This document shows, in pieces, positions 20,336 to 64,000 of a DNA stretch of 64,000 bases; the stretch's first letter is position 1; every line of letters starts with the position of its first letter. The stretch is from Escherichia phage vB_EcoP_IMEP8: the sequence record NC_070993.1; one strand, given 5' to 3'. The translations under genes were made by a program, and so were the position numbers. A model generated the notes under the pieces. That model was given only the letters and a program-made list of their open reading frames with translations. It was not told the DNA's origin and searched no databases.

Positions 20336-21154
20336 TTACCAAGATTTGTCTAACCATGTCCAGTCGAACAGGTCTTCCGGAGTCTGACCAACAAAGAGCA
20401 GCCGAGCATTCTCAAGCATCTTCTCTTCATCTTCAGTATCGAACTTCTTATAATACTCCATTCGTACTATATGATACATGGTCCATTTGTCTGTAACACC
20501 AGCCAACAACTTAGCTGCTGCTTTCTTCCCTACTCCTTGGCGTCGAAGCTGAAGCTTACCGCCCCACATAACTTCTTTACGTTCTCCACATCCGGGGATA
20601 TTATCTGTTCCATCTCCAATCAACATCTGATAGAAGAAGTTTTGCCATGAAACTAAATCAGATACATAGTGAGGAGGAACTTCTTTCTGCCTTTCTCCAC
20701 AAGCCCAACGGTAGTGCCATCCGGGAGTTATCAACAAATCTTTGTCTCTAGTACAGATGATAGTGTTCTTATCTCTACGTTGCCTTTCAGCTAGTGCATC
20801 ATCAGCCTCTCTCCCAAATACATCTATGTATTCATATTTACCTTTAATATAATCACCAACATTTTGCCAGTGAAAAGGTCTTTCTCCGGGAGGTCTATTT
20901 GCCTTGTAGTCTTGCTGCTTAGCAACATCGAAACGGAAGTTACCACCTTCGCTAAAGTAGAACACAACCTTACTGCAACCTGAGCGAGCAATGATAGTAT
21001 CTATCTTGTACTGAAGTCGTTCAATCATGAAATTGTAATCAACTGGAACACGTCCTGTGTCAAGGAAGGGATGCTCCTGAGTAAGAGCACCCACTTCGTA
21101 TCGAAGAACGTCAGCATCCACTATAGCTACTTCAGGGAGCTTAACGTCTTCCAT
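20336..21154 (-). CDS. 5'-3' exonuclease / flap endonuclease (FEN, PolA N-terminal-like)
   Basis: Motifs YKANR, GREADDALAE, TRDKDLL, GDGTDNIPG. Confidence 0.8.
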   Translation of the reverse strand: MEDVKLPEVAIVDADVLRYEVGALTQEHPFLDTGRVPVDYNFMIERLQYKIDTIIARSGCSKVVFYFSEGGNFRFDVAKQQDYKANRPPGERPFHWQNVGDYIKGKYEYIDVFGREADDALAERQRRDKNTIICTRDKDLLITPGWHYRWACGERQKEVPPHYVSDLVSWQNFFYQMLIGDGTDNIPGCGERKEVMWGGKLQLRRQGVGKKAAAKLLAGVTDKWTMYHIVRMEYYKKFDTEDEEKMLENARLLFVGQTPEDLFDWTWLDKSW

Positions 21155-42529: not shown

Positions 42530-44560
42530 TTAACCTCTATTCAATGAACATTTAGGAGAATTACAATAAACTTGATTCATAGAACCAAGCGTACAACTTT
42601 CAGCATCGCGCCACGGAATCTGCTTAAAACACTCTGAACAGTAGCCGAGGGTTGACCACATTGCTTTGGTGAAGTCAGTGCTTCGGTTTCCGTCGAAGCT
42701 GACGACAGTTTTGCGGAGAGCTGTTCGTGATTCAGGAAACACACCTGCTTTCTCAGCAGGTTCCTCCTTTTTTGGCTTAGTTGAGATTGCAAAAATACTG
42801 TTGCTACGTTTCTCAACATAAGCATCAACAACATCCTCCAGAGTGATGCCTGTCTGTTTCGCTGAGGAAGGTAATATAGTCATACGACCAATCATTTCTT
42901 CAGTTACACGTAAAGCAAACTCAGGACGACGGGCGTTTGTTGTATCTGTTGCTTTAATCCATACATAACCATCTTTGATCGTAGCATTAGATACTTTCTT
43001 CTTTACTTCTACAGCGCAGACTTTACAGATATCTTCACCACGAAGACGACTAAGTTCATCATCGAACTCATTCTCTGTTTTAACTTCACCGCAGATTTCA
43101 CAAACACCAATAGGAGTTTCCTCCTCTTCTTCCTCTTTAGGTTTAGTCAAACCTTCCAGACATTCAGGATGCCAGTAGCACTGATATGCGAAGACTGCTT
43201 TAGGTGCATCCTTCCAATCAATGTGCTTGTCACAACCACCACAATCACCATGAGAATGAGCTTCCCAGAATTTACGAGTGATAGTAACGCCATTCTTGTT
43301 GACGAAACTATCATTCATATCAAAAGGGATATCATCATCGAAGTCAGCAGTAGTTGACTCAGGCTCCTTTTTCTCCAGAGATGGGTCAACAAAACGACCT
43401 GCTGTGATCACTAAACGGACCATAGCATTGACTTCGGAGATGCAGGATACTGTCCCACGGTAAACAATTTTAGGGTCTTTCAGTGCATCCTGATAAGCCT
43501 TAATGTCTACATTATGAACATCACCTTCGATATACTCTTGAGACTTCTCATCGTAGATATAACCGATCATCTTACCACGAGAAGGAACAGCACCAGCAGT
43601 TGCATAAGGAACAAACTCATGCGGAGTGATTTCCACAGTCATATCGCGGCGAATATCAATGTTTCGATCGCTTGCGATTTTGTTTTGACTTACCACTGCG
43701 TTTCTTCGACGAACGTCTGCCGCTGTCACTCCCGGCTTCGTGTCGTAAGGATTGCTTGTATTGCTTTTTGAGGAACTTTGATAGTTGCTTTGGCTGTAGT
43801 TGTTCGAGTAGTAATTGCCCCAACGATTGATTACCGTAAAAACCGGAAGCTCGTGGGCGACCTCTTCAACCAGAGTCATGCTGTTGTTTGACATATCAAA
43901 GATATACTCTGTACCAACTTTACATTCAAAATGCTCGTCAATACGATTCTTGTGAGATCTAGAACGCTTCAGAATCCACATCAACATATCTTCTTCAGAA
44001 GCACCAAACCAATCTCTATTACAGCGTGCGAGATGGAAAGGACGCTCTTCATTACGGATGATATGAAGACGGTTATCAGAAGCATCATGCCAGATTAAGG
44101 TGAAAGCACCATCCAGCTTTTGAATAGTCTCTGCTGCACCAATAGTGTTAATAGAGTGGCAGATGTTCTCACTGTCTACCTCGAAGTTTTTGCTGTCAGG
44201 TAACAGGTCTTGGTCCATCAAGGTTCCGTTATGAACCAGAGTGATGTTACCATGTTGGAAAGGATGGGCGTTCTTGGCGTTAACTGCACCTTTCGTTGCA
44301 TGACGGCTGTGACCAACAATCCATGAAGGTGCTACAGTGTAAGCTGTTTCACCAGTGGTGTGTTTCTTGTACTCATCTTGTAGGATGAATGCGAAAGAAG
44401 GAAGAGCTTCTTTATAAGTGAAGACTTCCTTAGTGCTTTTACGCTGACCAAAGATACCGGAGGAATGTTGTCCTCGGAATACTCCAGCATAAAAGAGTTG
44501 GTTGAATACGTCTAAATCAGTGCTTGACAGATTACCGCCAGCTAATACGATGCCACAAAT
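42530..44560 (-). CDS. class-II glutamine amidotransferase / Ntn-hydrolase domain protein with C-terminal Zn-ribbon region; apparent ATT start
   Basis: In-frame extension upstream of ORF-track start encodes CGIVLAGG...FRGQHSSGIFG...GHSRHATKG; Cys codon lies two codons after an in-frame TAG; SD AGGTGGA precedes ATT; C-terminal CxxC pairs. Confidence 0.65.
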   Translation of the reverse strand: MCGIVLAGGNLSSTDLDVFNQLFYAGVFRGQHSSGIFGQRKSTKEVFTYKEALPSFAFILQDEYKKHTTGETAYTVAPSWIVGHSRHATKGAVNAKNAHPFQHGNITLVHNGTLMDQDLLPDSKNFEVDSENICHSINTIGAAETIQKLDGAFTLIWHDASDNRLHIIRNEERPFHLARCNRDWFGASEEDMLMWILKRSRSHKNRIDEHFECKVGTEYIFDMSNNSMTLVEEVAHELPVFTVINRWGNYYSNNYSQSNYQSSSKSNTSNPYDTKPGVTAADVRRRNAVVSQNKIASDRNIDIRRDMTVEITPHEFVPYATAGAVPSRGKMIGYIYDEKSQEYIEGDVHNVDIKAYQDALKDPKIVYRGTVSCISEVNAMVRLVITAGRFVDPSLEKKEPESTTADFDDDIPFDMNDSFVNKNGVTITRKFWEAHSHGDCGGCDKHIDWKDAPKAVFAYQCYWHPECLEGLTKPKEEEEEETPIGVCEICGEVKTENEFDDELSRLRGEDICKVCAVEVKKKVSNATIKDGYVWIKATDTTNARRPEFALRVTEEMIGRMTILPSSAKQTGITLEDVVDAYVEKRSNSIFAISTKPKKEEPAEKAGVFPESRTALRKTVVSFDGNRSTDFTKAMWSTLGYCSECFKQIPWRDAESCTLGSMNQVYCNSPKCSLNRG

Positions 44561-44639
44561 TTTCTAATCCACCTGAAGGGTAAACCCTTTCATCTAATTA
44601 ACCTTTAAATTGTGCCCCTTTACCAGAGGCACCCATTGA

Positions 44640-57943: not shown

Positions 57944-58210
57944 TTAGTTGCCTTTACCTTTAAATAGCGCTACCCTAAGCAATTCGACTTCTTCTAGCGA
58001 CAACAAAATCCCACGTTGCGCCAAATACTGACCAGCTAGTAACGAATCCATGATCAAAGCAACGGCGGGAAAACTCACCGTCTTAATGCTATCGCCGACA
58101 ATAAACAAGATTAAGCATTTGTCAGAATCGTCAGTATATGAGAAATCGATCTCACCATAATTGTGAGTCAGAATAGTAAAGCTGTATTCTTTAGCCATTT
58201 TTGTCACCAT
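57944..58210 (-). CDS. hypothetical protein (88 aa)
   Basis: ORF only. Confidence 0.4.
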   Translation of the reverse strand: MVTKMAKEYSFTILTHNYGEIDFSYTDDSDKCLILFIVGDSIKTVSFPAVALIMDSLLAGQYLAQRGILLSLEEVELLRVALFKGKGN

Positions 58211-63458: not shown

Positions 63459-64000
63459 TCTACTATATAGGACGGGGAACACACAACCGCATAACAGACC
63501 ACGGGGAAACATAGCAAGATAATGCGGTAATAATATTCCACTTAAATAATTAGTTAACTATTAATAGCATTACTCAAACATCAAAAACCGTTCGTACTAC
63601 GTACTCACGCACGCTGAAAAAGAAAAGAATAAACATCAATTATTAAAAGAAATATAATCATCCACTTAATTAATACATACATCATTATTGCACTCATAAT
63701 CATTACTATTGAAACTATTTACATTCAAACTATGGGGAGCTGCGACTGTTACATGACGGTATTATATCGCCTTAAACTAATCGTTATACAGACCTTTATA
63801 CAGTGCTAGCCTTTCTCTCACTCTTTAAAGGGGAACTAAATAAACGGGTGGGTAATGAATAGGATGGTATACACGGGGAAAGAATAACGGGGAGTAAGCA
63901 CGGGGAAACGCTGGAACGTGGAAGGAGGTGTAAAGGCATTGCCAATAACCCTTTTTTAAATGAGGACTCCCCCCTTTTAGGAATTCGTCGCGGAGCGCCT

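Follow-up and report, generated by a model that had tools for sequence, protein, structure and literature searches.

A minus-strand gene of Escherichia phage vB_EcoP_IMEP8, studied here in a 64,000-nucleotide (nt) stretch of DNA (sequence record NC_070993.1; this whole stretch is called the window), encodes a class-II glutamine amidotransferase and appears to start at a non-canonical AUU codon placed directly before the codon of its catalytic cysteine. Judged from sequence, AUU initiation of this homolog of phage phiEco32 gp83 is well supported. We put a probability of roughly 85% on the full explanation, which comprises the gp83 homology, the AUU start, a cassette of stem-loop, Shine-Dalgarno (SD) sequence and start codon, and the roles proposed for its parts. 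Natural AUU starts are extremely rare, and the two textbook cases in Escherichia coli are both regulatory. What is new here is that about 15% of the lineages of this amidotransferase family use ATT or ATC together with a hairpin-SD cassette, that at least one unrelated gene does so too, and that ATG-starting relatives lack the hairpin.

On the minus strand, the SD sequence AGGTGGA (44574-44568) is followed by TTAGAAA (44567-44561), ATT (44560-44558) and TGT (Cys, 44557-44555), and then by GGC ATC GTA, giving CGIV. Written as codons, the leader and start region read ATG AAA GGG TTT ACC CTT CAG GTG GAT TAG AAA ATT TGT GGC ATC GTA, and the protein from the TGT opens CGIVLAGGN...RGQHSSG. No ATG, GTG or TTG lies between the in-frame TAG (44566-44564) and the Cys codon in the minus-strand reading of the window. 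The original prediction, made from the letters alone, had described just this arrangement, with ATT, AAA and TAG before the Cys codon, no canonical start and the AGGTGGA 7 nt upstream of the ATT; our re-reading of the strand bore it out, and all coordinates were correct. Three points treated below went unmentioned in it: a mini-ORF in frame ahead of the gene, a stem-loop next to the SD, and the existing annotation of this start in phiEco32. It had also held that the program-made list of open reading frames (ORFs) missed the first 113 codons, and this is so: the listed gene begins at TTG 44221 (563 amino acids (aa)), and the open frame continues 113 codons further upstream. An ATG at codon 115 adjoins the TTG of codon 114, and the sequence context before these two codons holds no SD. 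Apart from the amidotransferase, no real gene in the window has a long open frame 5' of its first canonical start, and the leader motif occurs only once within the window. The features on which the argument turns are the following:

42530-44560, minus strand: complete coding region (676 codons and a stop) of the class-II glutamine amidotransferase that resembles phiEco32 gp83, with ATT as its putative start, based on translation, on the annotation of phi32_83 over the equivalent 2031 nt and on the ratio of nonsynonymous to synonymous substitution rates (dN/dS)
44558-44560, minus strand: ATT (AUU), predicted initiation codon and sole plausible start, with an in-frame TAG two codons upstream and ATG at this place in the outgroup L010
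44555-44557, minus strand: TGT codon of the catalytic N-terminal nucleophile Cys, matched in alignment to Cys1 of E. coli GlmS and PurF and unchanged throughout the family alignment
44561-44567, minus strand: A-rich 7-nt spacer TTAGAAA, including the in-frame TAG, identical in at least 10 diverged lineages of the family
44568-44574, minus strand: SD sequence AGGTGGA (AGGAGGA in most other ATT lineages)
44574-44592, minus strand: stem-loop abutting the SD, predicted by folding, with the core AAGGG-TTTA-CCCTT at 44589-44576
44219-44221, minus strand: TTG at codon 114, the first canonical in-frame start, taken as the beginning of the gene by mechanical ORF calling and in many public annotations
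43775-44557, minus strand: N-terminal nucleophile (Ntn, class-II) glutaminase domain, about residues 2-262, from Pfam GATase_6/7/4 and a PDB profile match over GlmS residues 1-261

The assignment to the class-II amidotransferases, also made in the original prediction, agrees with Pfam matches to GATase_6/7 at residues 76-193 (GATase_6 E=1e-14) and with a family profile that can be aligned to E. coli GlmS and PurF starting with their Cys1. In a 30-sequence alignment, R28, H109-N110-G111 and D128-S129 are invariant, and all are present in the window protein, which thus retains counterparts of the class-II hallmarks (Arg26, Asn98-Gly99 and Asp123 in GlmS numbering). The phage protein therefore resembles the class-II domains of GlmS and PurF in its N-terminal Cys nucleophile, its R-G...H-N-G...D catalytic constellation and a sequence match at the level of the fold; unlike them, it carries a C-terminal part of 400 residues with CxxC pairs in place of a sugar-isomerase or phosphoribosyltransferase domain.

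The start context, which the original prediction had proposed to look for in homologous phages, is present in all of them: the 61-nt leader was found in 97 of 97 related phage records, with at least 99% identity in 67 of them, 98.4% listed for the Suseptimavirus-type records (a single synonymous change, in the Gly codon) and 96% in two Aeromonas phages. Because these relatives come from many laboratories and sequencing platforms, a sequencing error as the origin of the ATT is excluded. The frame behind the leader is also constrained. Between Kuravirus and Suseptimavirus/Nieuwekanaalvirus, codons 2-114 read in the Cys frame show a saturated proportion of synonymous differences (pS, 0.66-0.77), a proportion of nonsynonymous differences (pN) of 0.13-0.16 and a dN/dS of about 0.09, whereas the other two frames of the same segment give ratios above 1.5. 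Strong purifying selection is thus seen in the Cys frame only, which marks the upstream 113-codon segment as protein-coding. The non-coding leader of about 50 nt has accumulated zero substitutions across that distance. In the nearest outgroup (L010, protein P0001, 68% aa identity) the sequence reads aaaggaaaagata ATG TGT GGA, with its ATG at the exact position of the window's ATT. The retention of the leader, the selection on the 113 codons, the outgroup ATG and the recurrence of ATT or ATC described below all agree with the claim that an AUU start makes Cys residue 1.

These data also bear on the idea that the N-terminal glutaminase domain is a relic that is not translated and that the protein starts at the TTG or ATG of codons 114/115, where gene callers and many GenBank records begin it and where the 63.8 kDa listed in the SU10 paper would place it. 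We consider this extremely improbable: the selection on codons 2-114 in the Cys frame only (dN/dS about 0.09) and the fully intact set of catalytic residues rule out a pseudogene, no SD precedes the two codons, and a start there would split the glutaminase fold. In that proteomics paper the SU10 protein was detected with 9 peptides, and the listed mass is that of the 562-aa truncated model starting at the ATG of codon 115 (the full-length protein has 76.2 kDa), so the data are uninformative on the N-terminus.

For the phiEco32 group, the AUU start is already present in the annotation of the type genome. The phiEco32 GenBank record (2008) starts phi32_83 (ABY52884) at the same ATT, as do the records of SU10 and of BASEL phages Bas87-94; biologically there is no difference between these orthologs and the gene studied here, which has the same leader and comes from another Kuravirus isolate. 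The SU7, EK010 and ECBP2 records start at an internal ATG 10 codons downstream, by which Cys1 is lost, and KBNP1711 and most recent records start even further downstream or leave the leader unannotated. Literature searches did not find a discussion of the gp83 start codon. In practical terms, most public annotations, and gene callers generally, remove the catalytic N-terminus, so that an intact enzyme resembles a fragment.

To place the ATT within the wider family, we used 80 viral loci (L071-L150) fetched by protein profile, which form an unbiased set for the codon before the Cys. The counts were as follows:

Codon before Cys ATG: 67 of 80 loci (64 directly and 3 after correction of an alignment offset)
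Codon before Cys ATT: 10 of 80 loci
Codon before Cys ATC: 3 of 80 loci
Codon before Cys GTG or TTG: 0 of 80 loci

The absence of GTG and TTG among the 80 loci, against 13 with ATT or ATC, reverses the usual ranking of non-ATG starts. Among database homologs, 98 of 120 begin MCG, and every one of the seven N-terminally truncated gene calls inspected in the protein-database sample proved to have ATT (6) or ATC (1). From these two independent samples we estimate that the ATT/ATC class makes up about 15% of lineages. Besides the window, ATT or ATC stands at the start position in 26 other lineages. In a neighbour-joining tree ATT/ATC lineages are interleaved with ATG lineages, and 18 of 20 distinct ATT/ATC leaders lack any canonical in-frame start in the stretch from the upstream stop to the Cys.

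The leaders of this class share a common layout. At least 10 lineages, with proteins less than 40% identical to one another, carry the exact 18-mer GGATTAGAAAATTTGTGG ahead of the Cys, and other ATT/ATC leaders read AGGAG-ATGAGAAA-AT[T/C], GGAGGATAGTCCC-ATT or AAGGAACTATT-ATC. A predicted stem-loop is present in all 20 ATT/ATC leaders, with a stem of 5-8 base pairs (bp), a loop mostly of 3-5 nt, a different sequence in each lineage and a 3' end that lies 13-16 nt before the start codon, directly at the SD. The segment from -42 to -13 has a mean minimum free energy of -6.1 kcal/mol in ATT/ATC leaders versus -1.6 kcal/mol in 55 ATG leaders (Mann-Whitney p=3e-9); measured against their own dinucleotide shuffles, the ATT/ATC segments reach a combined p of 1e-9, and the ATG segments p of about 1. 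Five of six further ATT/ATC leaders share the hairpin, and three close ATG relatives of ATT lineages (L010, L134 and L123) are without it. L025 and L041 have identical protein N-termini and an identical AGGAGGATTAGAAAATT, with wholly different upstream genes and hairpin sequences; in this pair a hairpin persists despite the exchange of everything upstream. The ATT/ATC class also has spacers richer in A than those of the ATG class. Separately, a non-coding element, cgataggcgcgtcaatgacgGGATTAGAAAATTTGTGGcacat, holds the same 18-mer with no ORF behind it (L019, L021, L028, L029, L033, L034, L038, L039, L053, L058 and L061); it was seen in a few related metagenome samples.

As a control, we considered the same ribosome-binding site (RBS) in front of other genes. 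An identical SD and spacer followed by ATG was found at more than 120 viral loci, before many unrelated genes with 46 distinct N-termini, and is therefore a generic strong phage RBS. A special signal in the TTAGAAA spacer was accordingly set aside; with the same SD and spacer so common before ATG, the spacer is probably just part of a good RBS. An adjacent hairpin of -4 kcal/mol or lower, in contrast, was found in 13 of 102 identical-RBS ATG leaders and 18 of 20 ATT/ATC leaders, so the hairpin tracks the start codon and not the RBS sequence. Distinct sites at which the leader is followed by a near-cognate triplet were distributed as follows:

Leader plus ATT: 17 distinct sites, of which 4 start a long ORF without a nearby canonical start
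Leader plus ATA: 30 distinct sites, of which 0 start such an ORF
Leader plus ATC: 12 distinct sites, of which 0 start such an ORF

An unrelated virion-type protein (L157), one of these ATT sites, provides the case outside the family. Its gene has an 11-bp hairpin, AGGAGGATTAGAAA and ATT. Homologs with 96% identity start at that position with MSKPKAPPPPDY; these have a normal ATG behind a weak SD, their upstream gene overlaps, and the hairpin is absent; the near-identical relatives L359 and L360 likewise have a plain ATG leader without a hairpin. The cassette is therefore not limited to amidotransferases. More broadly, AGGAGGATTAGAAA-ATT precedes non-amidotransferase genes, mostly with an adjacent hairpin, at L157/L168, L165, L166, L161 and L171, and among their products are virion-type proteins and a tail-fibre-like N-terminus.

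The initiator tRNA reads AUU and AUC as near-cognate codons, and initiation factor IF3 discriminates against them. In E. coli reporters AUU is 6-8 fold weaker than AUG (PMC3592434), and mRNAs with AUU are poor competitors whose use depends on context, temperature and ppGpp (PMC5499595). In the mechanism that we propose, the initiator tRNA would begin translation at the AUU (44560-44558), and removal of the Met would expose the Cys as the catalytic N-terminal nucleophile. The parts of the cassette would act in the order in which they stand, namely a stem-loop ending about 14 nt upstream, a strong SD, an A-rich spacer of 6-8 nt, AUU or AUC, and the Cys codon. With a near-cognate start, initiation would be intrinsically inefficient and open to proofreading by IF3; the strong, optimally spaced SD and the A-rich spacer may compensate for the weak codon, giving high ribosome affinity with a commitment step limited by proofreading. 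From the general properties of AUU and AUC codons it is plausible, as the original prediction suggested, that expression of the enzyme is IF3-sensitive and low or regulated. The fixed position of the hairpin beside the SD suggests one of two candidate roles: it might stack on the helix of SD and anti-SD and stabilise it, or it might form a barrier that shields a ribosome-poor, AU-rich initiation region from RNases that attack from the 5' end.

Several observations weigh against this reading or narrow it. The simplest role for the hairpin, that of keeping the SD accessible, is unsupported and was set aside, because the predicted accessibility of the SD and start, taken as unpaired probabilities and opening energies, is alike in ATT/ATC and ATG leaders. 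The SD-antiSD duplex is stronger in the ATT/ATC class (-9.1 versus -6.4 kcal/mol), a comparison that is biased and partly built in, as 11 of the 20 ATT/ATC leaders were fetched with a motif that includes part of the SD. Recurrence of the SD and spacer may in part be convergence on an optimum and not a specific signal, and the lineages compared share kinship and are not phylogenetically independent. The case for the AUU start is one of sequence, and the sole proteomics, from SU10, gives a mass that fits the truncated model. Lastly, the window has an upstream in-frame ATG, which may leave room for low-level products of UAG readthrough.

That ATG opens a short reading frame of its own, which distinguishes the leader of the phiEco32 group:

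44564-44593, minus strand: in-frame 9-codon mini-ORF, MKGFTLQVD*, which spans the hairpin and the SD and ends at the UAG 3 nt before the AUU (from sequence reading)

The mini-ORF has its own SD-like AAAGG 8 nt upstream of the ATG at 44593, and when GGTTAATTAGATG is set against GGTGGATTAGAAAATT this AAAGG and the ATTAG spacer mirror the main start region. A block of 50-55 nt that covers the mini-ORF and leader is invariant in Kuravirus, Suseptimavirus and Nieuwekanaalvirus and recurs in Aeromonas phage BUCT695 (L008) with two differing positions between unalignable flanks; conservation of the mini-ORF was not found in other ATT lineages. The extra constraint in the phiEco32 group suggests either coupling by termination and reinitiation or a binding factor specific to the group, and translation of the mini-ORF may thus add such coupling to direct initiation at the AUU. 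An alternative helix in the minimum-free-energy fold of the window, pairing GGUUUACC with GGUGGAUU (44568-44587, minus strand), would sequester the SD; both BUCT695 substitutions break its pairing without compensation, and it is probably not the fold that functions.

Reinitiation could also be the main route, with ribosomes translating the mini-ORF from ATG 44593, melting the hairpin, stopping at the UAG and restarting 3 nt on at the AUU, which would remain the start codon but depend for its use on translation of the mini-ORF. We regard this as possible but rather unlikely. The frame, the SD-like AAAGG, the invariance in three coliphage genera and near-invariance in the Aeromonas phage speak for it, as does a spacing of stop, 3 nt and AUU equal to the UAA-GGU-AUU of infC at the thrS-infC junction; moreover, L025 and L046 have a long gene upstream whose stop codon is this same UAG. 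It is not general, however: L030 and L050 have no ORF ending there, the upstream gene of L018 ends inside the hairpin, later examples lack an in-frame stop at the position of the UAG, and BUCT695 itself has no obvious SD for the mini-ORF. Lineages without an ORF ending at this position speak against universal coupling to an upstream ORF.

In a second conceivable use of the upstream ATG, translation would start at 44593, read through the UAG and yield a 12-residue propeptide whose autocatalytic removal would expose the Cys, as in Bacillus subtilis PurF. Some Ntn amidotransferases have propeptides, the first residue of PurF structures 1ao0 and 1gph is the mature Cys, the mini-ORF shares the reading frame of the Cys codon, and one relative (P0005) can be read as MTKI-Cys from a GTG. 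This route is nevertheless very improbable, since the only tRNA in the window is tRNA-Arg(UCU), with no suppressor tRNA, and most ATT/ATC lineages have no in-frame canonical start upstream. Readthrough in L025 and L046 would fuse a whole upstream protein onto the enzyme, and the outgroup ATG stands directly before the Cys.

A further alternative treats the leader as a translational operator, with the hairpin and RBS bound by a phage or host protein that would repress or activate initiation and the AUU making the site especially responsive. Known phage translational operators are built with a hairpin beside the RBS (PMC3014915), and in the phiEco32 group the approximately 50-nt leader, the loop included, has kept every nucleotide although synonymous divergence is saturated. 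We nonetheless think it unlikely, as stems and loops without shared sequence across lineages speak against one sequence-specific binder for all of them; a candidate RNA-binding regulator was not found, and no Rfam family matches the leader (hits were at chance level, with E>=1 and far below gathering scores, by which a known structured RNA was rejected). Like the operators of T4 gp43, gp32 and RegA, the leaders place a stem-loop immediately 5' of or overlapping the RBS of an early gene; unlike them, they have no common stem or loop sequence, and their occurrence follows which start codon is used, not any particular regulator.

Returning to near-cognate initiation proper, the closest known systems are infC and pcnB of E. 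coli, which likewise have a conserved near-cognate AUU start at which IF3 discrimination is expected. As in starts of this type, the gene has no canonical in-frame start, its SD is spaced by 7 nt, and the codon is conserved in orthologs and occupies a position equivalent to ATG; the resemblance to infC extends to a stop 3 nt upstream (UAA GGU AUU, here UAG AAA AUU). It differs in that no link to IF3 autoregulation is evident, the SD is much stronger, the hairpin abutting the SD is obligatory, many phage lineages show the arrangement, and AUC can take the place of AUU. A wider proposal, which we put forward tentatively and would on balance not yet bet on, is that the SD-abutting stem-loop is a licensing element for near-cognate AUU/AUC initiation. 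The layout of a hairpin ending at about -14, a strong SD, an A-rich spacer and AUH would then define a distinct class of phage initiation region, exchanged or re-created as a unit, used by genes as unrelated as those of amidotransferases and virion proteins, and giving expression that could be tuned by IF3 or physiology. With dozens of independent AUU/AUC starts that can each be set beside an ATG relative and that show a consistent structural hallmark, the gene family offers a ready comparative data set on what permits the ribosome to accept a near-cognate start and on what an SD-adjacent hairpin contributes.

Two other explanations of the upstream coding segment and the conserved block were rejected. 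A frameshift from the upstream gene does not fit, as the amidoligase gene ends 80 nt away in another frame and no slippery site fits the Cys frame. A promoter behind the conserved block was dismissed as well, there being no sigma-70-like site on the minus strand and no entry at this junction in the SU10 promoter/terminator table. Between the two genes lies one further structure:

44612-44632, minus strand: intercistronic 8-bp stem-loop directly past the amidoligase stop (from folding)

This stem covaries between genera (GTGCC/GGCAC versus GCGC/GCGC) and lacks a U-tract; in some GenBank records it is labelled a terminator.

The surrounding region shares 97% identity with phiEco32-like coliphages (genus Kuravirus), in which the homologous gp83 is annotated "glutamine amidotransferase", and the gene neighbours belong to a phiEco32-type cluster of Amidoligase_2, COOH-NH2 ligase and ATP-grasp genes. 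The C-terminal residues of the amidotransferase, about 400 in number, have no Pfam match. In the C-terminal third (42530-43400, minus strand) there are three CxxC...CxxC pairs, CGGC...CYWHPEC, CEIC...CKVC and CSEC...CNSPKC, whose sequence suggests zinc-ribbon modules; the family consensus likewise terminates in CxxC...CxxC. Elsewhere in the window, the motif TTTAAAKGTWAAT (at most one mismatch) occurs four times against 1.06 expected, at 20836-20848, 44597-44609, 57952-57964 and 63717-63729, all on the minus strand, which is the strand of the early and middle genes. A similar sequence, TTTAAATGTAAA, lies upstream of the amidotransferase gene in L076 and L078-L081, and the two may represent a promoter-like or regulatory element.

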